A stretch of DNA of 64,000 nt. Origin: Escherichia coli. Its GTDB lineage: Bacteria; Pseudomonadota; Gammaproteobacteria; Enterobacterales; Enterobacteriaceae. The notes beneath the pieces were generated by a model. That model saw only the letters and a list, made by a program, of their open reading frames with translations. It did not search any database and was not told the DNA's origin. Where the stretch lies: the NCBI RefSeq assembly GCF_003334765.1, contig NZ_QOWT01000007.1. One strand, 5' to 3'. Positions within the stretch are counted from its first letter, which is position 1, and every line of letters starts with the position of its first letter. The position numbers and the translations under genes were made by a program. This document shows positions 26,478-64,000 of the stretch, piece after piece.

Positions 26478-27267
26478 ATTAGAAGAGCCACTTGCCACAC
26501 TCTGGCGTGGTAAAGATGCCTTTGCAGAAGTTAAAAAACTGAATGGCGAGGTCTTCCGTGAACTGGAGACGCGTCGCACATTACGCTTTGAACTGGCCGG
26601 CAAAAGTTATTTCCTCAAATGGCACAAAGGGACGACCCTAAAGGAGATTATAAAAAATCTGCTCTCATTGCGGATGCCCGTTTTAGGTGCAGACAGAGAG
26701 TGGCACGCTATTCATCGACTGCATGATGTCGGTGTTGATACGATGCACGGAATAGGATTTGGTGAAAAAGGGTTAAATCCATTAACTCGCACATCATTTA
26801 TTATTACCGAAGATCTCACTCCCACAATTAGCCTTGAAGATTATTGTGCAGATTGGGCGGTCAACCCGCCTGATGTACATATTAAGCGTATGCTGATCGC
26901 GCGTGTGGCAACCATGGTGCGCAAAATGCATGCAGCAGGGATTAATCACCGTGATTGTTATATCTGCCACTTTTTACTCCATTTGCCATTTACTGGCCGG
27001 GAAGATGAATTAAAAATTTCGGTTATCGATCTGCACCGGGCACAGATACGTGCAAAAGTACCACGTCGTTGGCGGGATAAAGATTTGATTGGTTTATATT
27101 TCTCATCAATGAATATTGGTCTGACGCAGAGAGATATCTGGCGATTTATGAAGGTTTATTTTGGGATGCCTTTACGCGATATTTATAGACTTGAGATTGA
27201 TTTACTTAAAAAGGCAAGGATTAAAGCAGGAAAAATAGAAGCAAGAACAATAAGAAAAAACTTGTAA
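26470..27267 (+). CDS. waaP: LPS core heptose I kinase
   Basis: 265-aa [43 protein letters not shown]... with kinase-like HRDCYICHF motif. Confidence 0.9.
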
Positions 27268-27299
27268 ATAGTATTTTATTACAAAAAGGGATTCTAAAA

Positions 27300-28280
27300 T
27301 TGTTGAAATATAGAAACTTCGTTGCTAAGAAGAAAAATTTATACCAAAACGAAGTGTCGTATGTTAAAAATTTACATATTGCACTATGCTTTGACCGTGA
27401 ATTCATAATGCCAGCGGGTGTTGCATTATATTCAATTATATCCAACAATAGACATATTAACCTTCATTTTCACCTTCTTATATCAGGCATAGAAGAAAAG
27501 GAGTGTTCAGCTTTTTACGAACTAGAAGGTCCTAATACATCAATATCTGTATATTATATAACTGATAAATTTGACATTAATCCGGATACATTAGTTCTTG
27601 GTATTCCTTTATCAACATGTTTACGTTTTTTAATCCCAGAAGTTATTGATGATAAAATAAATAAGATACTTTATCTTGACTGTGATGTCATATGTAATGG
27701 TCCTTTAGATGAACTGGTTGATTATAATTTAAATGCTGATATTGCATGTGTAATTCCAGATTCGCCAGAAATGCAAGAACGTGTAAAAAAATTAGACTAT
27801 GGCATTGAGTTTATTAATTATTTTAATGCCGGGGTTATGTTTATTAATACCAGCGAATGGAAAAAAAATAATATAACACAAAAAGCGTTAGAAATGATCA
27901 ACAGTGGAAAAGTATATAGGTATGCAGATCAGGATGTGCTCAATATTTTACTTAATGGACGAGTGCATTACCTTGATAAGAAGTACAATAATAAGACAAC
28001 ATTGTCAGTACGATGTGATGAAGAACAAAAAAACTTGCCCAACACAATTATAATGCATTATGTTACCCAGAATAAACCATGGTACAAAATATTTAGAGCA
28101 CAAAATTTTGATCATTATTTTTCAAATTCTCCTTGGAAGAACCATAAAAGAAATCTAGCTCCATCATCAAGTGAGATTAGGTTAAAGTCTAAAGTTTTTT
28201 GGCTAGAAGGAAAATATTGTAAAGCCATTTCTTATTATTATAAGTATTTACTTGTTAAATTATTTGGCTTAAAGATTTAG
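27300..28280 (+). CDS. LPS core GT8-like glycosyltransferase at the position occupied by waaS in K-12/R2 clusters
   Basis: 326-aa ORF in very AT-rich DNA; GT8 hallmarks YLDCDVIC, YFNAGVMFINTSEW and DQDVLNILL, clearly paralogous to the two downstream GT8 ORFs. Start codon uncertain (the tool start is a TTG). Confidence 0.6.
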   Translation: MLKYRNFVAKKKNLYQNEVSYVKNLHIALCFDREFIMPAGVALYSIISNNRHINLHFHLLISGIEEKECSAFYELEGPNTSISVYYITDKFDINPDTLVLGIPLSTCLRFLIPEVIDDKINKILYLDCDVICNGPLDELVDYNLNADIACVIPDSPEMQERVKKLDYGIEFINYFNAGVMFINTSEWKKNNITQKALEMINSGKVYRYADQDVLNILLNGRVHYLDKKYNNKTTLSVRCDEEQKNLPNTIIMHYVTQNKPWYKIFRAQNFDHYFSNSPWKNHKRNLAPSSSEIRLKSKVFWLEGKYCKAISYYYKYLLVKLFGLKI

Positions 28281-28293
28281 CTGGAATGAAATT

Positions 28294-29373
28294 ATGAAAA
28301 TAGCCTTTATTGGCGAAGCTGTTTCTGGATTTGGCGGCATGGAAACAGTCATTCGTGATGTTATTACTACCTTCAGGCAACAACATATCCAAAGTGAAAT
28401 TTTTTTCTTTTGTCGTAATGACAAAATGGATAAGGGATGGCTGGAAGGTATTAAGTACTCGTGTTCATTTTCCAATATTCGCTTAGGTTTTTTGCGTCGC
28501 GCGAAACATATTCATGCTTTAAGCAAATGGCTTCATGATTATCAGCCAGATGTTGTTATTTGTATTGACGTGATCTCGTGTTTGTATGCGGCCAAAGCTC
28601 GTAAAAAATCGGGGATTGATGTACCTGTATTTTCATGGCCGCATTTTTCTTTAGATCATAAAAAACATGCCGAATATATCACCTGTGCCGACTATCATTT
28701 AGCCATCAGCTCTGGTATTAAACAGCAAATGATTAGCCGGGGTGTACCAGAATCGACAATAAACGTTATTTTTAATCCCGTTGAGGCGAAAAATTCAGTC
28801 ATTCCTGCACCCGGGGAAGGCGAAACGGCAACATTCATTTATGTTGGGCGCATGAAATTTGAAGGCCAAAAGCGCGTAAAAGATCTGCTTGATGGCTTAT
28901 CACAAGTGCAAGGTGACTGGAAACTTCATGTATTGGGAGATGGCTCCGATTTCGAAAAATGCCAGGCTTATGGTAGAGGATTAAATATTGATGATCGAAT
29001 TGTCTGGTATGGTTGGCAACAACATCCCTGGAAATTAGTTCAGCAAGATATTAAAAAAGTGAGTGCATTATTACTCACGTCATCTTTTGAAGGTTTCCCA
29101 ATGACTCTACTTGAAGCCTTGTCGTGGGGGATCCCTTGTATCAGTGCAGATTGTGTCTCCGGGCCTGTTGATATCATTCAGCCTGATGTTAATGGTCATT
29201 TATATCAACCGGGGGATATGACCGGTTTTGTTGCTCTTCTCAATAAATACATAGCCGGTGAAATTCACATCGCACATGAAAAAATTCCGGCGTCGATCGA
29301 TAAATTTTATCAACCGAAATATTACGACAGATTGCAAAAGATAATTATTTCTGTTATTTCCCGGAGGAAATAA
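28294..29373 (+). CDS. waaB: LPS core alpha-1,6-galactosyltransferase (GT4)
   Basis: 359-aa ORF MKIAFIGEAVSGFGGMETVIRDVITTFRQQ...; GT4 motif FEGFPMTLLEALSWGIPCI. Confidence 0.8.
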   Translation: MKIAFIGEAVSGFGGMETVIRDVITTFRQQHIQSEIFFFCRNDKMDKGWLEGIKYSCSFSNIRLGFLRRAKHIHALSKWLHDYQPDVVICIDVISCLYAAKARKKSGIDVPVFSWPHFSLDHKKHAEYITCADYHLAISSGIKQQMISRGVPESTINVIFNPVEAKNSVIPAPGEGETATFIYVGRMKFEGQKRVKDLLDGLSQVQGDWKLHVLGDGSDFEKCQAYGRGLNIDDRIVWYGWQQHPWKLVQQDIKKVSALLLTSSFEGFPMTLLEALSWGIPCISADCVSGPVDIIQPDVNGHLYQPGDMTGFVALLNKYIAGEIHIAHEKIPASIDKFYQPKYYDRLQKIIISVISRRK

Positions 29374-30392
29374 TGCAGCAGGTTTTTTTCCAGGAGACTG
29401 AGTTTCTCAATTCGGTTATTGATTATAATCATAAAATAGAAGCAGAAAATCTTTGTCTGGATATTGCTTATGGGACTGACAAAAATTTTCTTTTTGGATG
29501 CGGAATATCGATTGCTTCAATATTAAAATATAATGAAGGAAATCAATTATGCTTTCATATTTTTACTGATTATTTCGGTGATGACGATCGCAAATATTTT
29601 GATGCCCTGGCCAGGCAATATAAAACAAGAATTAAGATATATTTAATTAATGGTGATCGACTCCGTTCATTACCCTGCACCAAGAACTGGACTCATGCTA
29701 TTTATTTTCGTTTTGTTATCGCCGATTACTTTTTTAATAAAGCACCCAAAGTTCTTTATCTGGATGCAGATATTATTTGTCAGGGAACTATAGAACCACT
29801 TATCAATTACACGTTTTCTGAACATACAGTCGCAATGGTTGTTACAGAAGGACAAAAAGACTGGTGGGCAAAACGTGCTCATTCGTTAGGTGTTGCTGGG
29901 ATTGCTAATGGTTACTTTAACTCCGGTTTTTTACTGATTAATACTAATCAATGGACGAATGAGCGGGTTTCTGCACGGGCCATTGCAATGTTAAGTGATC
30001 CAGAGATAGTCAAAAAAATAACACATCCTGATCAGGATGTATTAAATATGTTATTGGCAGACAAACTTGTTTATGCTGATATTAAATATAACACTCAGTT
30101 TAGTTTAAATTATCAACTAAAAGAAAGTTTTAAAAACCCAGTAACTAACGATACAGTTTTTATTCATTATATTGGTCCAACTAAACCCTGGCATGACTGG
30201 GCCTGGGATTATCCAATATCACAAGCTTTTATGGCGGCAAAAAATGCTTCACCATGGAAGGATACTGCGTTATTGAAACCGGTTAATAGTAATCAATTAA
30301 GATACAGTGCTAAACATATGTTGAAAAAAAAGCAATATATCAAAGGATTTGGCAACTATCTTTTGTATTTTATAAAAAAGCTAAAGCATTAA
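29373..30392 (+). CDS. waaO: LPS core alpha-1,3-glucosyltransferase (GT8)
   Basis: 339-aa ORF MQQVFFQETEFLNSVIDYNHKIEAENLCLDIAYGTDKNF...; motifs YLDADIIC and DQDVLN; ATGA overlap with the waaB stop. Confidence 0.8.
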   Translation: MQQVFFQETEFLNSVIDYNHKIEAENLCLDIAYGTDKNFLFGCGISIASILKYNEGNQLCFHIFTDYFGDDDRKYFDALARQYKTRIKIYLINGDRLRSLPCTKNWTHAIYFRFVIADYFFNKAPKVLYLDADIICQGTIEPLINYTFSEHTVAMVVTEGQKDWWAKRAHSLGVAGIANGYFNSGFLLINTNQWTNERVSARAIAMLSDPEIVKKITHPDQDVLNMLLADKLVYADIKYNTQFSLNYQLKESFKNPVTNDTVFIHYIGPTKPWHDWAWDYPISQAFMAAKNASPWKDTALLKPVNSNQLRYSAKHMLKKKQYIKGFGNYLLYFIKKLKH

Positions 30393-30555
30393 TACTGATA
30401 ATCTATACTCTAAATAATTCGAGTTGCAGGACAAAAAGCCAGTGGCGTTTTGAGGAACGCTTGCGTTGGCCCTGAAATGCCGAGTAACTCGCCGATGCAG
30501 CACATGCAACTTGAAGTATAACGAGTATATAAAGTAATGATATAAGGATAGCCTT

Positions 30556-31572
30556 GTGAACTCATTTCCTGCCATAGAGATAGATAAAGTTAAAGCCTGG
30601 GATTTTAGGCTTATTGATGAAAATACTGCTGAAAGTTTAAATGTTGCCTATGGTGTCGATTCCAATTATCTTGATGGTGTAGGTGTTTCCATTACTTCAA
30701 TTGTCATTAATAATCGACATGTTAATCTTGATTTTTATATTATTGCTGATGTTTATAACGACGATTTCTTTCAAAAAGTTGAGAAACTTGCTGAGCAATA
30801 CCAATTAAGAATCACACTTTATAGAATAAATACTGATAATCTTCAGTGCCTGCCTTGTACACAAGTCTGGTCAAGAGCAATGTACTTCCGTTTATTTGCT
30901 TTTCAATTATTGGGAGTAACACTTAATCGTTTGCTTTATCTTGATGCCGATGTAGTTTGTAAGGGAAATATTAGTCAACTATTGCATTTAGAGTTTAATG
31001 GAGCGGTGGCTGCAGTAGTCAGGGATGTAGACCCAATGCAGGAAAAGGCGGTAGTCAGATTATCTGATCCTGAACTTCGGGGGCAGTATTTTAATTCTGG
31101 TGTCGTTTACTTAGACCTAAAAAAATGGACAGAAGCAAAACTAACCGAAAAAGCACTGTCTATTCTTATGAGTAAAGATAGTATTTATAAGTATCCTGAC
31201 CAGGACGTTATGAATGTCCTACTAAAAGGGATGACAATATTCCTGCCACGTGAGTTCAATACTATATATACAATAAAAAGTGAGTTAAAAGATAAAACGC
31301 ATCAAAAATATAAAGAGTTGATAAAAGAGGATACTCTTCTTATTCATTATACTGGGGCCACCAAGCCGTGGCACAAATGGGCAATTTATCCATCGGTAAA
31401 ATACTATAAAATAGCTTTAGAAAGATCCCCCTGGAAAGATGACTCACCACGAGATGCAAAATCAATTATTGAATTCAAAAAAAGATATAAACATCTGTTA
31501 GTGCAACATCATTATATCTCAGGACTCATTGCAGGAGTGTGTTATCTTTGCCGAAAATATTACCGTAAATAA
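30556..31572 (+). CDS. waaR: LPS core alpha-1,2-glucosyltransferase (GT8; WaaR/WaaJ-type)
   Basis: 338-aa ORF (GTG start) ...NSFPAIEIDKVKAWDFRLIDENTAESLNVAYGVDSNYLDGVG...; motifs YLDADVVC and DQDVMN. Confidence 0.75.
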   Translation: MNSFPAIEIDKVKAWDFRLIDENTAESLNVAYGVDSNYLDGVGVSITSIVINNRHVNLDFYIIADVYNDDFFQKVEKLAEQYQLRITLYRINTDNLQCLPCTQVWSRAMYFRLFAFQLLGVTLNRLLYLDADVVCKGNISQLLHLEFNGAVAAVVRDVDPMQEKAVVRLSDPELRGQYFNSGVVYLDLKKWTEAKLTEKALSILMSKDSIYKYPDQDVMNVLLKGMTIFLPREFNTIYTIKSELKDKTHQKYKELIKEDTLLIHYTGATKPWHKWAIYPSVKYYKIALERSPWKDDSPRDAKSIIEFKKRYKHLLVQHHYISGLIAGVCYLCRKYYRK

Positions 31573-31589
31573 CATTTAACTGGTTTAAC

Positions 31590-32288
31590 ATGATTCAGAA
31601 GAATAAAATCAAAGATTTAGTTGTTTTTACCGATGAAAATAACTCAAAGTATCTCAATGTATTAAATGACTTTCTTTCTTATGATATTAATATCATCAAA
31701 GTTTTTCGTTCTATAGATGATACAAAAGTCATGCTTATTGATACCGATTACGGTAAATTGATACTTAAAGTTTTTTCGCCTAAAGTAAAACGCAACGAAC
31801 GTTTCTTTAAATCTCTTTTAAAGGGAGATTATTATGAACGCCTTTTTGAGCATACTCAAAAAGTGCGTAACGAGGGGCTACATTCTCTCAATGATTTTTA
31901 TTTGTTGGCAGAACGGAAAACATTACGTTTTGTCCATACTTATATCATGCTTATCGAATATATCGATGGCGTAGAGTTGTGTGATATCCCCGATATTGAT
32001 GAAACTTTAAAAAATAAAATTCAACAATCAATTCGTTCATTACACGAACACGGTATGGTATCTGGTGATCCTCACCGCGGTAATTTTATTATTGAAAATG
32101 GTGAAGTACGCATTATTGATCTTTCAGGAAAACGGGCATCTGCACAACGTAAAGCGAAAGATCGTATTGATTTAGAGCGACATTATGGTATTAAGAATGA
32201 GGTTAAAGATCTCGGTTATTATCTTTTAGTTTATCGTAAAAAAATACGTAATCTTATGCGGCGTTTGAAAGGGAAGCCAGCACGATAA
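31590..32288 (+). CDS. waaY: LPS core heptose II kinase
   Basis: 232-aa ORF MIQKNKIKDLVVFTDENNSKYLNVLNDFLSYDINIIKVFRS... Confidence 0.85.
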   Translation: MIQKNKIKDLVVFTDENNSKYLNVLNDFLSYDINIIKVFRSIDDTKVMLIDTDYGKLILKVFSPKVKRNERFFKSLLKGDYYERLFEHTQKVRNEGLHSLNDFYLLAERKTLRFVHTYIMLIEYIDGVELCDIPDIDETLKNKIQQSIRSLHEHGMVSGDPHRGNFIIENGEVRIIDLSGKRASAQRKAKDRIDLERHYGIKNEVKDLGYYLLVYRKKIRNLMRRLKGKPAR

Positions 32289-32359
32289 AGTAAAAGTCTT
32301 ACATTTAAACGTCTTCGTCAGGACATTTCTATGCGGAGTTCTTATTTCACAGGTTTATC

Positions 32360-33169
32360 ATGAAGAATATTAGATACATTGACAAAAAAGATGTTGAAAA
32401 CCTGATAGAAAGTAAAACGTCTGATGATGTTATTATTTTTCTTTCCGGCCCCACATCGCAAAAAACACCATTGTCAGTGCTGCAGACAAGGGATGTTATT
32501 GCTGTCAATGGTTCTGCACAATATCTATTAAGTCATAATATTATTCCCTATATTTATGTACTTACCGATGTTCGCTTTTTACATCAACGGCGTGATGATT
32601 TTTATAAATTTAGCCAGAGAAGTCGTTATACCATCGTAAATGTTGACGTTTATGAACATGCTTCTGAAGAAGATAAGCGGTACATCCTTCAAAACTGCCT
32701 GGTACTACGTTCATTTTACCGCAGAGAAAAAGGTGGATTGATCAAGAAGATCAAGTTTAATATTTTGAGCCGAATTCATAAAGAGCTCCTGATCTCTGTA
32801 CCTTTTTCTAAAAAAGGTCGTCTGGTTGGCTTTTGCAAGGATATTAACCTCGGTTATTGTTCATGCCATACCGTTGCTTTTGCTGCAATCCAAATAGCCT
32901 ATTCGCTGAAGTATGCTCGTATTATCTGTTCAGGCCTTGATTTAACGGGTAGCTGTTCGCGTTTCTATGATGAAGATAAGAATCCTATGCCCTCAGAGTT
33001 GATTCGGGATTTATTCAAAATTTTACCATTTTTCCGTTTTATGCGTGAAAATATAGAAGATATCAATATTTATAATTTATCCGACGATACTGCAATTCAA
33101 TATGATATTATTCCCTATATGAAAATATCCGAAATTGAAGAGCCGTGTGTTTATGAAAAAATAAGCTAA
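32360..33169 (+). CDS. waaZ: LPS core biosynthesis protein WaaZ (Kdo III-associated)
   Basis: 269-aa ORF MKNIRYIDKKDVENLIESKTSDDVIIFLSGPTS...; position between waaY and the last transferase gene. Confidence 0.75.
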   Translation: MKNIRYIDKKDVENLIESKTSDDVIIFLSGPTSQKTPLSVLQTRDVIAVNGSAQYLLSHNIIPYIYVLTDVRFLHQRRDDFYKFSQRSRYTIVNVDVYEHASEEDKRYILQNCLVLRSFYRREKGGLIKKIKFNILSRIHKELLISVPFSKKGRLVGFCKDINLGYCSCHTVAFAAIQIAYSLKYARIICSGLDLTGSCSRFYDEDKNPMPSELIRDLFKILPFFRFMRENIEDINIYNLSDDTAIQYDIIPYMKISEIEEPCVYEKIS

Positions 33170-33221
33170 TATTTTATATGTGTTTATTACGTGTTATAAA
33201 TTATATTGGAGTTGGCTAATA

Positions 33222-34364
33222 ATGATTAAAAAAATAATATTTACCGTCACACCAATATTTTCTATACCGCCAAAAGGAGCTGCAGCGGTTGAAACATGGA
33301 TTTATCAGGTCGCAAAAAGACTTTCGATTCCAGTAACTATCGCCTGTATTCGAAACGAAGGTTACCCAACCTACACAAAAGTAAATGATCACTGTGATAT
33401 TCACTACATTGGTTTTAGTCGAGTCTATAAACGACTTTTCCAAAAGTGGACTCGACTTGATCCTGTGCCATATTCTCAGCGTATTTTAAATACCCAACCT
33501 AAAAACACTGATCCGAAAGACTCTGTTATTGTTATCCACAATAGCATGAAGCTGTATAAACAGATTCGTAGCAGAAGCCCTCACGCGCAGCTAGTTATGC
33601 ATCTTCATAATGCTTTCGAGCCAGGTGAGTTAGACAAAAATGCAAAGATAATTGTTCCTAGCCAGTTTCTTTTCGATTTCTATTCGGAAAAAATGCCTGA
33701 TGCAAATATTGCTATTGTGCCTAATGGTTTTTGTTCTGAATCGTATGAACAAAATAATACTGAAGATTTGAGGCAGAAACTGAACATTGATGCAAATGAT
33801 ACCGTGTTATTATTTGCAGGAAGGATATCACCAGATAAAGGTTGCCTGATGCTTATGGAGGCTTTTAATCAGCTGAATAAGATACAAGATAACCTCAAAC
33901 TGGTGATTGTCGGAGATCCTTTTGCCAGTAAAAAAGGCGAAAAAGCTGAATATCAGAAAAAAGTTCTGGATGCAGCGAAAGCTATTGGAGCGCAATGCAT
34001 TATGGCGGGTGGACAGCCTCCAGAGCAGATGCATAACTATTACCGTTTAGCAGATTTAGTTGTTGTTCCTTCTCAGGTAGAAGAAGCTTTTTGTATGGTA
34101 GCTGTTGAAGCGATGGCGGCAGGTAAACCAGTGCTTGCCAGTCAAAAAGGTGGAATTAGTGAGTTTGTTCTGGAAGGAATTACAGGCTATCACCTTGCAG
34201 AGCCTATGACATCTGAAAGTATTCTCGCGGATATTAAGCGCGTTTTGGCGGATGCTGACAGAGCTCAAATTGCTAAAAATGCCCGAAATTTTGTTTTCTC
34301 AAAATATAGCTGGGAACATGTTACTCAGCGTTTTGAAGCACAAATACAAGACTGGTTTGGTTAA
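33222..34364 (+). CDS. waaK: GT4 glycosyltransferase, WaaK-like (alpha-1,2-GlcNAc transferase of R2/Salmonella-type cores)
   Basis: About 380 aa from ATG 33222 (MIKKIIFTV..., GGAG about 10 nt upstream); GT4 EX7E region EEAFCMVAVEAMAAGKPVLASQKGGISEFV. This is not the GT9 WaaU found in K-12. Confidence 0.7.
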   Translation: MIKKIIFTVTPIFSIPPKGAAAVETWIYQVAKRLSIPVTIACIRNEGYPTYTKVNDHCDIHYIGFSRVYKRLFQKWTRLDPVPYSQRILNTQPKNTDPKDSVIVIHNSMKLYKQIRSRSPHAQLVMHLHNAFEPGELDKNAKIIVPSQFLFDFYSEKMPDANIAIVPNGFCSESYEQNNTEDLRQKLNIDANDTVLLFAGRISPDKGCLMLMEAFNQLNKIQDNLKLVIVGDPFASKKGEKAEYQKKVLDAAKAIGAQCIMAGGQPPEQMHNYYRLADLVVVPSQVEEAFCMVAVEAMAAGKPVLASQKGGISEFVLEGITGYHLAEPMTSESILADIKRVLADADRAQIAKNARNFVFSKYSWEHVTQRFEAQIQDWFG

Positions 34365-34383
34365 AAATTATTGGATTTGAAGA

Positions 34384-34420
34384 GCCTGCCTGAACTTAAT
34401 GTCAGGCAGGCTTTTTTTTA
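34384..34420. terminator. bidirectional hairpin terminator between convergent waaK and waaL
   Basis: GCCTGCCTGA-acttaat-GTCAGGCAGGC followed by a T-run (A-run on the other strand). Confidence 0.7.
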
Positions 34421-35635
34421 TTTATTCCGCATTGCTAACAGTAAACCAACAATCAAGCCAATTGGTTTGAGATCAACTTCCTCGAAGTTACCTCGAATAA
34501 TATAAAAGCTTACAAGCGTTAAAAATAGTAGTAATTGACCATTATAAGGAGTGACGACAACTGTTTTAAACGTTGCATTAGCTGTCTCTTTGATAATAGA
34601 GCCATACAGATAAAGTAAAGCGAGTAGTCCAGCCAAACCCGCTGCAAACCAAATTGACAAAACAACGTTGTGTGGCCCAATGGATTGCCTGAACTTCCAT
34701 GACGGAAAATCTACAACACGCTTATTATATATTGCATGGTAAATATCATCGCCGTAGCCATATCCCTTAAGAGGATTTTCCATAATTAATGTCCACGCCG
34801 TACCTTGAGTACCATTGGTATAGCGATAAGAACTGTCGGTCTGTTGAAGTTTATAAATAAGCCTGTCTTTACCAGCATGATCACCTTTATAGGTAAATAC
34901 ACCCACTGCGGCAACAGAAATAACGATGGAAGTCAGCATCAATAATTTCCACTGACGATTTAAGATTAACCATAGCAGAGTCACTATGAATACTGCCAGC
35001 CATGCACCACGAGACAGCGTTCCTAATAGCAGAAATAAGAAAACTGCACTAAAAATTACGAATGCTATTTTATAAGAGGTTTTCTTGATAAGCCAAAGGT
35101 TTAATAATGCTGGAAACAGAAACACCATTGAATCGGAAATACTACGGTGTTCATAGGTGGAAAATGGCATTATTCCTTTATTATAATCCTGAATATAAAG
35201 AATAAGTTCAACAAGACAACGTAAGCCAAGTCCGGTAACTAATGAGTATAGTACAATTTTACCAATGCTTTCATTATCTTCATCTTTTAATAATGCAGGT
35301 ATAAGTAAACTATAGGCCAAAAATCCTTTAAGTACCGTATTACTGAATTCTTTAAAACTGATTTTCAGATCAGGTGATATAAAAGTAGCATATAAAAGAA
35401 TGAGTGATAGTGCCAGGACACTATAAAAAAGATTATTTTTATAGAGTACTTTAAATGTTCCCGGAGCACGAGAAACTTGATAGATTACCGTAATAATCAT
35501 TAGTATAGATATGATGTGTTTATAACGGGTTATACCATCAAGGAAAAAGGTTGCAATAAAGAGGAATACCAACGCTTTATTCCAGTACGGTTTCCACTTT
35601 TCTTTATTACGTAGCGCCAGCGAGGCTGTTAACAT
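34418..35635 (-). CDS. waaL: O-antigen ligase
   Basis: 405-aa polytopic membrane ORF MLTASLALRNKEKWKPYWNKALVFLFIATFFLDGITRYKHI...; position downstream of waaC; AT-rich. Confidence 0.85.
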   Translation of the reverse strand: MLTASLALRNKEKWKPYWNKALVFLFIATFFLDGITRYKHIISILMIITVIYQVSRAPGTFKVLYKNNLFYSVLALSLILLYATFISPDLKISFKEFSNTVLKGFLAYSLLIPALLKDEDNESIGKIVLYSLVTGLGLRCLVELILYIQDYNKGIMPFSTYEHRSISDSMVFLFPALLNLWLIKKTSYKIAFVIFSAVFLFLLLGTLSRGAWLAVFIVTLLWLILNRQWKLLMLTSIVISVAAVGVFTYKGDHAGKDRLIYKLQQTDSSYRYTNGTQGTAWTLIMENPLKGYGYGDDIYHAIYNKRVVDFPSWKFRQSIGPHNVVLSIWFAAGLAGLLALLYLYGSIIKETANATFKTVVVTPYNGQLLLFLTLVSFYIIRGNFEEVDLKPIGLIVGLLLAMRNK

Positions 35636-35673
35636 TGCTTCTCCACCATCTTAAATAATATATAACGTATTAA

Positions 35674-36630
35674 TCAGGAATTGATTTTATTAAATACCGT
35701 TTCTGCAGTCAGATGAGCAAGATCTTTATCTGGTGCCCTACAAACCACCTGATTCTTCCCATATCCGCCAATTAATCCCGGATCGGTTGGTCCATAAACC
35801 GTGATATTCGGTCGATCCAGTGCTGCAGTTAAATGACTTAACCCAGTGTCTACCGATACCACGAATTTCGCTCCGGCCAGCACACGGGCAACACCTTCCA
35901 GACTCATCTTCGGCAATACTTCAACATAAGCAAATCCTTCCGCCAGTCGTTTCGCCCGTTTTTCCTCATGCGGCGCACCCCACGGAAGTTTAATGCGAAT
36001 CCCTGAATCTGCCAGTAAACCAATCAATTCTCGCCAGTGTTCTTCCGGCCAGTGTTTATCATCACGGGTCGTCGCATGAAGAAATACGGCATATTCGCCA
36101 GCATCTGTAGGCAGGTTCGTCAGAAAATGCTGTGCGATAGCATAATCGCCCTGGGTTTGCGGTTTGCTATAGCCCAGACTTTTGGCAAAAAGTTCGCGGA
36201 TGCGTTCTACGGCGTGCTGCTGTTTTGCAATATGATGTTTACGATTGTAAAACAGGCTGGCTAAAGGTTCGCGAGCGGTTTGCCAGTCCATTCCATGCTT
36301 TACGCCATGCGCCAGACGCGTCACCAGCGCCGCGCTTTTTACCAGCCCCTGAGCATCGATAACTGCGTCATAGTTCTCTGCTTGTAGCGCTTCACGAAAC
36401 GCTTTGCGTTCAGCTTTTATGGGGGCCGAGAACCAGGCTTTACGCCAGCGACGTATTGCCACAGGAATAACTCGCTCAACGGCGGCGTGCCAGGAAGGAA
36501 TCTGTGCGAACCCTTCTTCCACCACCCAGTCAAACTTAATCCCTGGGATTGCCTGCTGGGCATCAGTGAGTGCGGGCAACGTATGGAGAACATCGCCCAT
36601 CGACGATGTTTTAACGATCAAAACCCGCAT
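35674..36630 (-). CDS. waaC: LPS heptosyltransferase I (GT9)
   Basis: 318-aa ORF MRVLIVKTSSMGDVLHTLPALTDAQQAIPGIKFDWVVEEGF... Confidence 0.95.
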   Translation of the reverse strand: MRVLIVKTSSMGDVLHTLPALTDAQQAIPGIKFDWVVEEGFAQIPSWHAAVERVIPVAIRRWRKAWFSAPIKAERKAFREALQAENYDAVIDAQGLVKSAALVTRLAHGVKHGMDWQTAREPLASLFYNRKHHIAKQQHAVERIRELFAKSLGYSKPQTQGDYAIAQHFLTNLPTDAGEYAVFLHATTRDDKHWPEEHWRELIGLLADSGIRIKLPWGAPHEEKRAKRLAEGFAYVEVLPKMSLEGVARVLAGAKFVVSVDTGLSHLTAALDRPNITVYGPTDPGLIGGYGKNQVVCRAPDKDLAHLTAETVFNKINS

Positions 36631-57310: not shown

Positions 57311-59224
57311 TTACTTACGACCTGCCAGCAGTTCCAGCACTTCATCCACGCTGGTGGTGTGTGCCAGACGCTCGATGACGGACTCATCATCCAGTGCATT
57401 GGTCAGGCTGGTGATAACCTGAATGTGCTCGTTGTTACGGGCAGCAATACCAATCACCAGACGGGCAATGTCATCTTCTTCTTCACCGAAGCGCACGCCT
57501 TCCGGGTACTGGCAGAACACGACGCCCGTTTTCAGTACGCGATCTTTCGCTTCAACCGTACCGTGTGGCACCGCGATAGACTCACCCAGATAAGTCGGGG
57601 TCAGTTTTTCACGATCCAGCATCGCCTGAACGTATTCCGGCTCAACGTAACCGCCTTTCACCAGCTGCTCGCCAGCAAAACGAATCGCTTCTTCTTTGGT
57701 TGCCGCTTTGCGACCGAGGAAGATGTTCTCCGCGCCTAGCTTGAACAGGTTAGCACTGGAATCGTCAAAGCTGTCTTTCAGGCTGTCTTTTACTTTCTCT
57801 TCGTTTGCCGTGTGGCGTTGGGCAGCAACCAGACGTTCGGTCAGGCTGGTGTACAGGCCGCTGTCGAGGAAGTTGGTCAGCGAAATATGCTGTGCCTGCG
57901 GAACCTGGCGCATAGCGCGTTCGGTCAGGTCACGGTGAGTGATGACGAGGTCCACATCTGGCGGCAGGTTGTTGATCGCGCTGTTAGTAACAGAAATCTG
58001 CGACAGACCTGCATCCTGAATTTTCTTACGCAGAACGCCTGCGCCCATCGCACTGGAACCCATACCGGCGTCACAGGCAACGATGATTTTACGTACGTGG
58101 CTCAGGTCGTTAGTCACATCGCCAGCAGACAGCGGAGATGCGCCTTTAGACTCAGCTTTCATGTCCTGCATACGACGAGTTGCTGCTTCAATATCATCTT
58201 CTTCTTTCACTTTGCTGGTTTTCAGCAAAATAGCAGAGACAACGAAGGAGACAGCCATCGCCGCACACACACCCGCGATGTTAGCGAAGTAAGCACCTTT
58301 TGGTGTCATCGCCAGTACAGCAAGGATAGAACCCGGAGATGCCGGAGAAACCAGACCACCGCCCAGGATAGTCAGCGTGAACACGCCAGTCATACCGCCG
58401 AGGATGACTGCGAGGATCAGACGCGGATTCATCAGCACATACGGGAAGTAGATTTCGTGGATACCCCCCAGGAAGTGGATGATTGCCGCACCGCCCGCAG
58501 ACTGTTTAGCGCTACCACGACCAAAGAACATGTACGCCAGCAGCACGCCCATACCTGGACCTGGGTTAGCTTCAATCAGGAAGAAGATTGATTTACCCAG
58601 TTCATGGGACTGCTGAATACCCAGCGGCGAGAAGATACCGTGGTTAATGGCGTTGTTGAGGAACAGGATTTTCGCCGGTTCAACAAAGATAGACGCCAGC
58701 GGCAGCATGTCATGGACAACCATGAAGTTAACGCCCGCAGCCAGCATTTTGGACAGGGCTTCAACAATCGGGCCAATGCCGAGGAATGCCAGAATAGCGA
58801 GGATCATCCCGATGATGCCTGCGGAGAAGTTATTCACCAGCATCTCAAAACCGGATTTGATCTTACCGTCTACCCAGCGGTCGAAGTGCTTAATGCACCA
58901 GCCGCCCAGCGGACCTGCAATCATAGAACCGAGGAACATCGGCATGTCTGCGCCGACGATAACGCCCATGGTGGTGATGGCACCGACTACGCCGCCACGT
59001 TCGCCGCCTACCAGCTTACCACCGGTATAACCGATCAGCAGCGGCAGGAGATAAGTGATCATCGGCCCGACCAGCTTCGCCAGCGTCTCGTTCGGTAACC
59101 ACCCTGTTGGAATAAATAACGCGGTGATGATACCCCACGCGATAAACGCGCCGATATTTGGCATCACCATGTTGCTGAGGAAACGACCAAAGCTTTGCAC
59201 TTTGATCTTAATATCGGATGACAT
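57311..59224 (-). CDS. mtlA: PTS mannitol-specific EIICBA component
   Basis: 637-aa [42 protein letters not shown]... Confidence 0.95.
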
Positions 59225-59367
59225 AAAAACACCCCTTCTTATGTTTGCTGTCGCGCAGGCTGGAAGCCCGAGGTTTTTTGTTAATGTGGCGGCAGAGGTA
59301 GCCGGACCTTGTAGATACTGCGAAATCTGGCACTGAATCGGTTAACTGTCCAGTCGACGGCCTTTTG

Positions 59368-59544
59368 TGTGATATCAATCACATAAATATAGGGGGTAGA
59401 GAGGTAATTGACGTGACGTTCATCACAAAACGCTTGTGTAAAAAAGCAACAAGGCGGCGATTTTCGCTAAAAATGGCATTTAAATGTGAGTAGTGTCACA
59501 TTTTTGTTTTGATGGTTTGTTGAATCTTTGTGATCTGAATCACA
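59368..59544 (-). promoter_or_regulatory. mtlA promoter region with several CRP-like sites (TGTGA-N6-TCACA)
   Basis: Sites at 59368-59383 (tgtgatatcaatcaca), 59485-59500 (tgtgagtagtgtcaca), 59529-59544 (tgtgatctgaatcaca), plus a weaker gtgacgttcatcaca at about 59411-59426, all upstream of mtlA. Confidence 0.7.
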
Positions 59545-59760
59545 AGATATTTTCTTACGGCGTTCACCTGATGTGATCTACAGCATGTTATGCCTTCGTC
59601 ATACAATCGTTATGTAACTAAGCAACTCATCACCTCTAAAAATTATTCTTTGGTGTTATGGCGAGAATCGCGAACCCGGATTATTGTCAAAATATCAGCC
59701 TGACTCCCTTCTGGCTGCCAGCCCAAAAACAACACTGATAAACGTGAATCCGAGGCAGAT

Positions 59761-60123
59761 ATGTTTCTAAACTATTTCGCGTTGGGAGTGCTGATCTTCG
59801 TCTTTCTGGTGATTTTTTATGGAATCATCGCGATACATGACATCCCTTATCTGATTGCCAAAAAGCGCAACCATCCCCATGCCGACGCTATTCATACGGC
59901 GGGCTGGGTGAGCCTGTTTACTCTGCATGTTATCTGGCCGTTTCTGTGGATCTGGGCGACGCTCTATCAACCGGAGCGTGGCTGGGGTATGCAGTCACAT
60001 GTTGCGTCGCAGGAGAAAGCGACTGACCCGGAAATCGCCGCACTTTCTGACCGAATTTCCCGGCTGGAGCATCAACTCGCCGCCGAGAAAAAGACTGACT
60101 ATTCCACGTTCCCGGAGATCTAA
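59761..60123 (+). CDS. yibI: small inner-membrane protein YibI
   Basis: 120-aa [60 protein letters not shown]... Confidence 0.8.
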
Positions 60124-60125
60124 TT

Positions 60126-61262
60126 ATGGATCTATTGATTGTTTTAACTTACGTGGCGCTGGCGTGGGCGGTCTTTAAAATCTTCCGCATTCCGGTAAAT
60201 CAGTGGACGCTGGCGACGGCGGCGCTGGGAGGCGTGTTTCTGGTGAGTGGTTTGATTTTGTTGATGAACTACAACCACCCTTACACTTTTACCGCGCAAA
60301 AGGCAGTGATAGCGATCCCTATCACGCCACAGGTGACGGGAATTGTTACTGAAGTCACTGACAAGAATAATCAGCTTATTCAAAAGGGCGAGGTGCTTTT
60401 TAAGCTCGACCCGGTTCGTTACCAGGCGCGAGTTGACAGACTTCAGGCTGACCTGATGACGGCGACGCATAATATAAAGACGCTGCGTGCGCAGCTCACT
60501 GAAGCGCAGGCCAACACCACCCAGGTTTCAGCGGAGCGCGACCGTCTGTTTAAAAATTATCAACGTTACTTGAAAGGCAGCCAGGCGGCGGTGAATCCGT
60601 TCTCGGAACGTGACATCGACGATGCGCGGCAAAATTTCCTCGCGCAGGATGCGCTGGTGAAAGGCTCGGTGGCGGAGCAGGCGCAGATCCAGAGCCAGCT
60701 CGACAGTATGGTTAACGGCGAGCAATCGCAGATTGTGAGCTTAAGAGCGCAACTTACTGAAGCAAAATATAACCTTGAGCAGACTGTCATTCGCGCGCCG
60801 AGCAATGGCTACGTTACTCAGGTACTGATCCGCCCAGGTACATACGCAGCTGCCTTGCCGCTGCGTCCGGTGATGGTCTTCATCCCCGAGCAAAAACGGC
60901 AAATTGTCGCCCAATTTCGGCAAAACTCGCTGTTACGTCTGAAACCCGGCGATGATGCGGAAGTGGTGTTTAACGCGCTACCTGGGCAGGTGTTTCACGG
61001 CAAACTGACTAGTATTTTACCTGTCGTGCCAGGCGGTTCTTATCAGGCGCAGGGGGTATTGCAATCATTAACGGTCGTGCCCGGCACGGACGGTGTGCTG
61101 GGAACCATTGAACTGGACCCTAACGATGATATCGATGCCTTACCCGACGGCATCTACGCCCAGGTGGCGGTTTACTCCGACCATTTCAGCCATGTTTCGG
61201 TGATGCGGAAAGTGCTGCTAAGAATGACCAGCTGGATGCATTATCTTTATTTGGATCATTGA
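60126..61262 (+). CDS. yibH: HlyD-family membrane-fusion (periplasmic adaptor) protein
   Basis: 378-aa ORF with N-terminal TM helix, coiled-coil segments and beta-barrel-like C-terminus; start 3 bp after the yibI stop. Confidence 0.8.
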
Positions 61263-61824
61263 GGGGGAGGGGGGAGATTATGGAACTTTGCTCCTTGTAA
61301 GGACTAATTATTTTTGCATATTACTTCATTAGCTGCGATGATTTTTCTTTAATATTCATTATGTTAATAAGTTCTGGATGAGTGTGCTCTCATTGGATTT
61401 TTTATCCGTCTTGTTCTGCCGCAGGATGAGACTATACATCGTCGAGATCGCAATGATGATATGAGTTGTTCCTCCTGCGACGGCTCTAATCAAAAAAGAG
61501 CAGGAGTGCTTTTCCATCTATTGCGATGATGGCTTTATTATCTGAAGGATGACAGTCACATTTAAAAAATATTTAATCTATAGATCACAATGTAGGGTCA
61601 TGGAATATATGTATACAACTATTTTCTTCTTCACTTTTAATTATCGTATTCATTATAAAACTAAGTTAAAAAAACTCCTGGAGAGTGAGTTATTAATATA
61701 TTTTTAAATAAAATTAAGTTATCATTCATCGATGCACTTTATAGAATCATCAATGGCCATAATAGTACTATTAACTCTCAATTTTATATTTTTATCATCA
61801 CTACAAATATTAACTGAATTTATA

Positions 61825-62160
61825 TCAATGATTTTTTTTATTCTTATCTTTTATTTTATTTACTGTTTCAATGCAATCAGCGGCAAGTTGGAGTGGATTT
61901 AGATTTTTCAGATATGGTCTTATGATCTTTCCCTTACTTAATAAATAGCATGTATAGGATTCGGAAAGTCCAGCATCTATTTTGTACCTCCTTATATTAG
62001 ATAAGGATGTGAGAAATTCCTTGTTATCATTCGCAGCCATATATGCCAGTCCGAGTTCAGCCTCTGCGGCCTTACAGGCAAAATAGCTTAGTGAACACGC
62101 TTTTCGTCCCTCTTTAGTACTGGCTGATATTAGTGCCCATAATATTGCTTTGTCTGCCAA
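61825..62160 (-). CDS. hypothetical 111-aa protein downstream of a decayed Rhs C-terminal fragment (candidate orphan immunity protein; possibly yibV)
   Basis: 111-aa ORF MADKAILWALISASTKEGRKACSLSYFACKAAEAELGLAYMAANDNKEF... in AT-rich DNA; position relative to the Rhs remnant. Confidence 0.4.
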   Translation of the reverse strand: MADKAILWALISASTKEGRKACSLSYFACKAAEAELGLAYMAANDNKEFLTSLSNIRRYKIDAGLSESYTCYLLSKGKIIRPYLKNLNPLQLAADCIETVNKIKDKNKKNH

Positions 62161-62248
62161 ATCTAACTCTCTCTGAAATTGTCTTGCAGTAACTGCACTC
62201 GCAGAAATAGAGAAAAAAATACAATTGTTAATAACCTTGCCATATTTT

Positions 62249-62866
62249 TTAGTCCGTAACTGTTAATGTGCTATCTGGCTCTGAAAATATTAACTCATTT
62301 AATTTTTGCATGTCATTAGATAAACCAGTTATACAACCCTCGGAACAGAATCGAGGTCCTAAAGACGGACCAAAAGCGTTTAAACAACTATGTATTGAAA
62401 ATCCATTGCGATTATAAGTTCCTGTATTAACTGACGGTACTAATCGTATGCCGTCAGGTTTTCTATTGCTTGCTCCCGGGTCATTAACATTCCAACTCCA
62501 TAGGCCTTGAGGTATTGGCTATCTATTTATAAATGTGTACAACGGGGATTATTTTTACATTGCATATTATTACCAGAAGCGACTGGAATACTAAGCACAT
62601 CATAAAAATTATCATCACATGGTATATCTGAAACACACGAAAGCATACCTAAAGTTATGCTGTATAAACAGGTGGCTAATCCCAAGGGGATCGATTCCAG
62701 AAATCGGGTTCAACGGATACTGATAAAAATTCCACCTACCTTCCAGCCCAATCGGAGCCTGAGTGTTATACCGCCCCTGCTGCGGTTAATGTTACCGATA
62801 ATAGTTATAGTACAGCCCTGATTCATCATCATACTACTGCTGCGGCAGTCTGATGAACTATTGCTT
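62249..62866 (-). pseudogene. decayed orphan Rhs C-terminal fragment (core-end remnant + disrupted CT domain)
   Basis: 62706-62860 is a diverged copy of the Rhs core-end DNA at 63857-64000. Minus-strand translation gives [53 protein letters not shown]... with in-frame stops and a downstream frameshift; no ORF of 60 aa or more. Confidence 0.65.
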
Positions 62867-63328
62867 TTACGGATTCTCCTTATTCTTCCTTCTATCCATT
62901 CGCTTTAGCTTTTTGAGCTCTTGAAGTTTGCTCTTTGCATCAATATTACCGTTATTTACAGCGAATTCCATCCAATAAATAGCTCTATTCAAATTATAAT
63001 ATTCTGATAATGTTGGATTTGTATCTGATAAAAAGACCCCATAATTAAACTGCGCTGTAACATTCCCCTGAGATGCTGATCTTTCCAAGAATCGCAATTG
63101 TTTGTAAATGTTATTTTTAGTAAAGCAGTAATATTGATATAGTCGAAATGATGCCTCTGAATCACCATGTTGTGATTTATACTTCAGTTTCATCAACTTT
63201 TCTTCACTTAAATCATAGGTCATTGCTGTAGACCCCATCATACTTTCGTTTTGTTTTATTTTCACATCAGCACCATGCAATTGACAAATAAAAGAGAAAT
63301 AAAAAAATAGTAACAAGCATGCTTTCAT
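62867..63328 (-). CDS. yibG: Sel1-like repeat protein with N-terminal signal/TM segment; candidate immunity protein for the upstream Rhs C-terminal domain
   Basis: 153-aa ORF MKACLLLFFYFSFICQLHGADVKIKQNE...SASQGNVTAQFNYGVFLSD (Sel1-like motif); start 12 bp after the Rhs-CT stop. Confidence 0.6.
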   Translation of the reverse strand: MKACLLLFFYFSFICQLHGADVKIKQNESMMGSTAMTYDLSEEKLMKLKYKSQHGDSEASFRLYQYYCFTKNNIYKQLRFLERSASQGNVTAQFNYGVFLSDTNPTLSEYYNLNRAIYWMEFAVNNGNIDAKSKLQELKKLKRMDRRKNKENP

Positions 63329-63339
63329 ACATCTACAAC

Positions 63340-64000
63340 CTATCTTATATCACTGGGTTTTTCTGGCGTACCTTGCATATTAGAAATGGGGTGCCCAGAT
63401 GGCCCATATGTTATCCAATTACCAAGGTCTTTTGTTGTTATAGCCATTAGATCCTTATTTGAATTAAGGTTCGTTGGTGCTGTTAGCACTGTATCCATTT
63501 TTAACTTACCATTAGTTCCTCGCCCCCACCACGTCCATAGCGTGTCAGGTCCTATTACATTTGTATGTAACTCTTTAGCTAATTGGCTAGCAAATGAATT
63601 TTGTCCTTTACCTGTATTACAAGAAAATAACCAAACTGTCATCCCATCTTTATAATTCCCATCAAATTTAATTAGATATGCTAGATCTTTAGCTGTCATG
63701 ATACTGCGCGTTGCGGATTCAATAGATGTGGGGGTACCATGCCCCCCGATTGTGAAAACGCCTGGGATATTAATCTCATCAGCTACAGAATGGATAAGAT
63801 CACTTTCGGGGTATAAATTTATATCAACCAAACCTTGCGGATCTACATTTATGACCGGATTCAACGGATACTGATAAAAATTCCATCCCCCCTTCAGCCC
63901 AATCGGATCCTGAGTGATATACCGCCCCTGCAGCGGGTCATAATAGCGGTGGCGGTTGTAATACAGGCCGGACTCCTCATCATACTGCTGCCCCGGCAGG
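63340..64000 (-). CDS. Rhs-family protein, 3' portion (core-end motifs + variable C-terminal domain of unknown function); 5' end lies beyond the window
   Basis: Minus-strand frame is open to the window edge and reads ...[57 protein letters not shown] (PxxxxDPxGL demarcation at 63829-63858), then a 162-aa C-terminal domain ending at 63340. The ORF-track start at 63864 is a TTG artefact. Confidence 0.75.

Follow-up and report, generated by a model that had tools for sequence, protein, structure and literature searches.

We analyzed a 64,000-nucleotide stretch of Escherichia coli DNA (hereafter the window) at positions 61263–61824, the interval that directly follows yibH. The locus is the mtlA–yibI–yibH region, in reversed orientation relative to K-12. 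The minus-strand genes to the right of yibH form the tail of the RhsA element, and the minus-strand annotation upstream in this cassette comprises RHS repeat-associated core-domain fragments, the sel1-repeat gene yibG, and Imm57. In a search of E. coli genomes, the interval was 99.8% identical to K-12 MG1655 and 100% identical to many strains, and the locus is the orthologue of the K-12 stretch yibG, yibS, yibW, yibV, and yibU, also at 99.8% identity. Rightwards from yibH, the interval contains a junction segment, a relic of an ISAs1-family transposase gene, an AT-rich spacer, and the end of an Imm57-family immunity gene (Table 1).

Table 1 Features of the interval 61263–61824 and of the DNA on either side of it. 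Positions are those of the window.
Feature	Position	Strand	Description and basis
yibH, HlyD-family protein	60126–61262	+	378 aa; last core gene; stop codon at 61260–61262; ORF list and RefSeq annotation of the identical locus
Junction segment	61263–61306		44 bp, first bases of the RhsA element; starts with the G-run GGGGGAGGGGGGAG (61263–61276)
ISAs1-family (H-repeat) transposase gene, internal relic	~61307–61563	-	Contains a frameshift and a stop; blastn, tblastn, NCBIfam, K-12 annotation
K-12 'promoter island' 3767592_418 (U00096.2)	~61519–61936		PMC3661553, Table 1
Orphan spacer	61564–61705		Single-copy, unannotated; ~21% G+C (20.7% for 61558–61721); core of the promoter island
Sigma-70-like site TTAACT-N18-GATAAT	61640–61669	-	Directed towards yibU and yibH; consensus scans
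Putative weak, bulged terminator-like hairpin ACUCACUCUCCAGGAGU with U-run	61668–61690	-	31 nt downstream of the Imm57 stop; predicted from MFE folds
Imm57-family immunity gene, pseudogene in this strain	61722–62242	-	PGAP 'Imm57 family immunity protein, frameshifted' (identical genome)
T8 run	61832–61839		+1 frameshift relative to T7 of intact alleles; alignments
A7 run	62213–62219		-1 frameshift in the predicted signal-peptide region; intact alleles have A8 or A7G; alignment
Tlde1-domain (L,D-peptidase) orphan Rhs toxin tip, broken; K-12 yibW/yibS	62249–62646	-	Outside the interval; indels in the window copy

The original prediction described about 560 bp of very AT-rich DNA without an ORF of 60 aa or more, set off from yibH by a sharp break in composition, and both the description and the break were confirmed. 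The G+C content of the interval was 31.5%, compared with 52.8% in yibH and 49.1% across the entire window. Just 2.5% of 562-bp windows were as G+C-poor as the interval, and the others lay in the waa cluster and the deeper Rhs tail. The RhsA tail as a whole (61263–64000) had a G+C content of 36.7%. The drop after yibH had a maximum-likelihood change point at 61276 (lnL gain 48) whose 2-lnL support range, 61218–61307, brackets the homology breakpoint at 61263 described below. Composition was uneven inside the interval, with 37–42% G+C at 61263–61557 and 21–24% at 61558–61824. The longest ORFs touching the interval encode 56, 52, and 52 aa, and the longest internal ORF encodes 52 aa. Since mononucleotide shuffling of the 562 bp also gave sequences free of ORFs of at least 60 aa in 83% of cases, the missing ORF is uninformative. 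The next ORF of this length after yibH is a minus-strand ORF of 111 aa at 61825–62160.

The interval is not empty of genes. Its last 103 bp (61722–61824) are the final 34 codons and the stop codon of the Imm57 gene, whose reconstructed 173-aa product matched Pfam PF15596 over residues 30–127 (E = 1.5e-46); NCBIfam models gave no match for either the Imm57 or the Tlde1 protein. The Imm57 reading frame is not intact in this strain and carries two frameshifts, both in homopolymer runs. Slippage in the T8 run creates the stop that ends the 111-aa 'yibV' at 61825, and thus the DNA leftwards from 61824 seemed to be free of ORFs. The right limit of the interval is therefore set by a 1-nt frameshift within a gene and not by the end of a gene. 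The K-12 'yibV', which has a TTG start, is the middle fragment of the 173-aa Imm57 gene with its predicted signal peptide. In terms of annotation, the gene with its two homopolymer slips extends 103 bp into supposedly intergenic DNA.

Both lengths of each run were found among E. coli genomes. The exact T8 allele was counted in 1,004 genomes, compared with 2,159 for exact T7; exact A7 was counted in 3,211, and 29 genomes had A8 on that background (the YZMc3-1 haplotype). At least two further E. coli haplotypes carried intact 173-aa Imm57 alleles, including that of strain 648 (WP_022646265), and a divergent haplotype class (90–95% identity, ~322 genomes) had an intact Imm57 gene in both examples examined. 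Intact Imm57 is thus a minority state in E. coli, comprising the 29 genomes with A8 on the background of the window and the divergent class.

The Tlde1-domain toxin tip upstream of Imm57 is its cognate partner. The window copy is broken, and an intact 135-aa orthologue in strain 648 (WP_072020486) matched PF10908 (E = 2.2e-7). Imm57 has been described as paired with Tox-LD-peptidase on Rhs proteins (Zhang et al. 2012, PMC3482391), and the pairing of the Tlde1 toxin with Imm57 has also been reported (Sibinelli-Sousa et al. 2020, bioRxiv 10.1101/2020.02.18.954545). The same pair as in this polymorphic-toxin module (Tlde1, DUF2778, L,D-peptidase) is found here, with Imm57 (PF15596) downstream of a Tlde1-domain Rhs tip. 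Unlike that module, however, both genes are broken in this strain, and the pair is an orphan, unattached to any full-length Rhs protein. Further into the tail lies another orphan toxin/immunity pair, in which an apparently intact 174-aa orphan Rhs tip (63340–63864, minus strand) is followed by the Sel1-repeat gene yibG (62867–63328, minus strand); yibJ of this region is a pseudogene in the K-12 annotation.

To the left, the interval contains a piece of an ISAs1-family transposase gene that includes the K-12 pseudogene yibU (b4652; 61359–61557). By blastn, it was 77% identical over 235 bp (61327–61559) to K-12 H-rptB/yhhI, and by tblastn it aligned to YhhI residues 96–159. A stitched translation matched NCBIfam NF033564 (transpos_ISAs1; E = 2e-14), with a score under the curated cut-off because just profile positions 67–151 of 314 are present. 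The closest copies elsewhere were ISEc1-type elements with 77–79% identity, and the plasmid collection yielded just mislabelled chromosomes and ISEc1 copies. No ISAs1 homology was found outside ~61307–61563, and a complete transposase gene and element ends are absent; the fragment is a relic and not an element. The arrangement resembles the K-12 RhsB tail (rhsB, yhhH, yrhC, H-rptB/yhhI), as both loci have an Rhs core gene, AT-rich orphan toxin-tip/immunity modules, and a terminal ISAs1/H-repeat next to core DNA. The RhsB locus, however, has an intact 378-aa transposase gene, whereas a ~255-bp internal H-repeat relic is found here. The pseudogenes, which we put at a third of the 'intergenic' DNA, had been missed in the first reading of the interval.

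The spacer between the relic and the Imm57 gene has no paralogues in E. coli; it occurs solely at this locus, without an annotated feature. An extension of the ISAs1 homology into the spacer, suggested by an ENG...HDT likeness noticed on visual inspection, was rejected, as neither relaxed tblastn nor the NCBIfam profile detected it. In a search of species-representative genomes for Imm57, one usable locus was found, on a short contig of Escherichia sp. MOD1-EC7003. Its homology to the window spans the Imm57 gene (95% identical) and stops at 61706, so the spacer is absent after Imm57 in this genome and is therefore not obligatory in the Imm57 cassette. At positions 2632–2850 of the MOD1-EC7003 contig, a different ISAs1 fragment, starting from about transposase residue 247, takes the place of the spacer and relic found in E. 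coli. It appears that an ISAs1 element followed Imm57 at an earlier stage and that its erosion took a different course in each lineage. The spacer (96–98% identity between haplotypes) had not diverged further than the relics on either side (92–94%), a difference based on too few substitutions to test.

To locate the boundary with the core genome, we compared the end of yibH together with the interval against 5,426 complete E. coli genomes. The gene yibH was found in 5,403 of them, and at least 80% of the query was covered in 3,679 of these matching genomes. The interval was carried by 3,726 of the 5,426 genomes and was absent from ~1,700. Among the matches sampled from genomes without RhsA, the alignment ended at query base 401, which is window position 61263, one base past the yibH TGA. 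The empty site, seen in two examples (E2348/69 and Ec-U10), consists of yibH, 70 bp, and yibF, followed by selA and selB. Beside yibF, K-12 retains just the last 37 bp of this 70-bp spacer, and therefore 32 bp were replaced by the RhsA element, which in K-12 amounts to ~8.25 kb by our own arithmetic and lies inverted between yibH and yibF, core genes that point in the same direction. The end of the RhsA element lies precisely one base past the yibH stop codon. The proposal that the compositional break marks the core/accessory boundary was thus borne out to the base. Flanked by conserved core genes, the block is present in some genomes and replaced by a definable empty site in others, carries orphan toxin tips and immunity genes, and has a G+C content below that of core DNA, as is characteristic of an Rhs accessory tail. 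No homologue was found for the junction segment 61263–61306.

Other occupants of the site were also observed. Strain EC444 (NZ_CM128674.1, 6401–12411) represents a third state, with a different island that encodes a helix-turn-helix gene and a fimbrial usher/chaperone operon. This island has GGGGGAAGGGG directly after the yibH stop, in common with the G-run of the RhsA junction, which suggests that the junction was reused or that one island was swapped for another. In several strains, including H14, the Rhs gene upstream of the tail is annotated as rhsB, followed by yhhH, and not as rhsA, suggesting recombination between Rhs elements with retention of the distal tail. IS1 insertions were recurrent in the region of the interval. 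In Z142-3 (NZ_CP159694.1), IS1 is associated with a deletion from inside yibH to ~61680; in N18-04097, an IS1A copy lies within the interval; and in KFu022, an IS1 copy splits yibH just upstream of it.

The AT-rich core of the interval is already known, since it coincides with a published H-NS-bound promoter island of K-12. Panyukov and Ozoline (2013, PMC3661553) listed island 3767592_418 as yibV(+)/yibH(-) within a predicted genomic island, and as H-NS-bound in all three ChIP studies compared (Grainger, Kahramanoglou, and Oshima). We mapped the island by adding 1,977 to obtain U00096.3 coordinates (3769569–3769986), a conversion that we inferred and that is possibly a few bases off. Shimada et al. 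(2014, PMC3946193) reported a SELEX peak of RNA polymerase holoenzyme between yibV and yibU, with the same hexamers as the sigma-70-like site, and their table gives no H-NS flag at this peak. In the window, the five promoter-like sites in 61518–61937 are the maximum of any 420-bp window in the 64 kb. The site density is unusually high over at least 300 bp, yet it is not elevated over that of dinucleotide-preserving shuffles (7 sites found versus 5.5 ± 2.5), and the 'island' is therefore a property of base composition. The locus does not differ in any respect from the promoter islands of K-12, being the same locus, AT-rich, in a predicted genomic island, and listed as H-NS-bound.

The expectation that this is H-NS-bound, horizontally acquired DNA agrees with these published data for the K-12 orthologue. 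The low G+C content, the presence or absence with a precise empty site, and the H-NS occupancy reported for K-12 liken the interval to H-NS-silenced, AT-rich xenogeneic DNA, although one SELEX-based table lacks an H-NS flag here. A promoter for the minus-strand cassette, which had also been envisaged, is excluded by geometry, because the interval is on the 3' side of the minus-strand genes, where their promoter cannot lie. Transcripts started at the promoter-like sites would be antisense in either direction, whether they ran towards yibH or into the cassette. The yibV mRNA was reported to be induced 7.9-fold by AZT (PMC11228462), so the tail is not always silent. A terminator scan called nothing inside the interval. 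The hairpin at 61668–61690, which had a fold z-score of ~0 and differs at one stem base in the YZMc3-1 haplotype, may be a remnant of a terminator, although its folding is not significant.

We read the observed boundary, gene remnants, and allele distribution as the end of a foreign element in decay. Very probably, the interval is a non-functional remnant at the distal end of RhsA, an element acquired horizontally, and consists of a decayed Imm57 gene, an ISAs1 relic, a spacer, and a junction. Seen from the Rhs side, it would begin with the 3' end of an orphan Tlde1/Imm57 module whose immunity gene was presumably inactivated by two slipped-strand changes in homopolymers, and would continue through ~140 bp of spacer at ~21% G+C and ~255 bp of ISAs1 relic to the 44-bp junction abutting the yibH stop. 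The low G+C content probably stems from the foreign Rhs-tip cassettes and from decay, and because of this composition the interval is dense in promoter-like hexamers. In K-12, whose sequence is 99.8% identical, the interval is reported to bind RNA polymerase and H-NS with little productive transcription, as the term 'promoter island' denotes. We infer that this DNA has no selected function beyond being silenced. The locus would then be a tidy textbook case of the decay of an orphan toxin–immunity module at the end of an Rhs element, and it raises no new question. What is gained is annotation, with 'yibV' as an Imm57 fragment, 'yibU' as an internal ISAs1 relic, and the exact end of RhsA.

Against this reading, the spacer could be a selected regulatory element: an H-NS nucleation site, an RNA polymerase trap, or a bidirectional termination zone, with the role of shielding the convergent yibIH operon from the RhsA tail and of silencing the orphan toxins. 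The plus-strand yibH and the minus-strand Rhs cassette do converge without a strong intrinsic terminator on either strand, and the weak hairpin and U-run lie just past the Imm57 stop. The spacer is moreover the least diverged segment of the tail, and the promoter island is H-NS-bound in K-12 according to published data. The difference in conservation, however, amounts to 3–6 substitutions and is not significant, and the density of promoter sites follows from composition. The spacer is also missing downstream of the same Imm57 gene in MOD1-EC7003 and is deleted or interrupted by IS1 in some strains. We therefore consider a selected element of this kind unlikely. The more specific proposal has 61564–61705 under selection to nucleate H-NS or to act as a sink for RNA polymerase, so that yibIH is insulated from the RhsA tail and the orphan toxins stay off. 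It is the one alternative that retains any weight, although very unlikely; if it were true, the spacer would be a functional 'heterochromatin seed' and not debris.

A short protein or small RNA, such as a product of the yibH 3' UTR, is highly unlikely to be encoded in the interval. The plus-strand ORFs of 52 and 56 aa might suggest a protein, and in an extracellular RNA fraction a dominant short RNA had its 5' end at K-12 position 3770242(-), which is window position 61263, the first base after the yibH stop (PMC8082180, supplement). That RNA could be a real 3'-UTR fragment or an artefact of G-rich mapping or processing; the reported oligonucleotide starts with a G-run, which makes an artefact the suspected origin. 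The short ORF that the original prediction thought might be hidden here found no support either. In the strain 648 haplotype, loss of a single nucleotide abolishes the 52-aa ORF, and in most genomes the frame of the 56-aa ORF switches at the T7/T8 run. The search for ribosome-binding sites that the prediction had proposed yielded no usable, properly spaced Shine-Dalgarno sequence for any short ORF. Thus no ORF with a ribosome-binding site is intact across haplotypes; the small ORFs are unconserved and had no PADLOC matches, and the current K-12 RefSeq record has no small gene annotated here. An Rfam 15 scan of both strands of 59000–64000 gave no match at E up to 1, and folds of the yibH 3' flank and of the Imm57 3' flank were no more stable than shuffles (z from -0.4 to +1.8). 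It is barely credible, finally, that the homopolymer runs form a phase-variable or slippage-corrected switch through which low-level expression of Imm57 would persist. In favour of a switch, each lesion adds or removes one base in a run of 7–8 A or T, and the two lengths of either run coexist in the population. The three haplotypes examined nevertheless pass the four-gamete test, and recurrent mutation is therefore not required. A7 is nearly fixed on its background, the cognate toxin is broken too, and this strain would need two independent corrections. The interpretation as the decayed, non-functional end of the RhsA element is thus the one that we retain.

A second large low-G+C block was observed in the window at ~26900–35900, with many 562-bp windows below 36% G+C and with promoter-like sites in numbers just as high. 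Its coordinates fit the waa (LPS core) cluster, for which several promoter islands are listed (PMC3661553).
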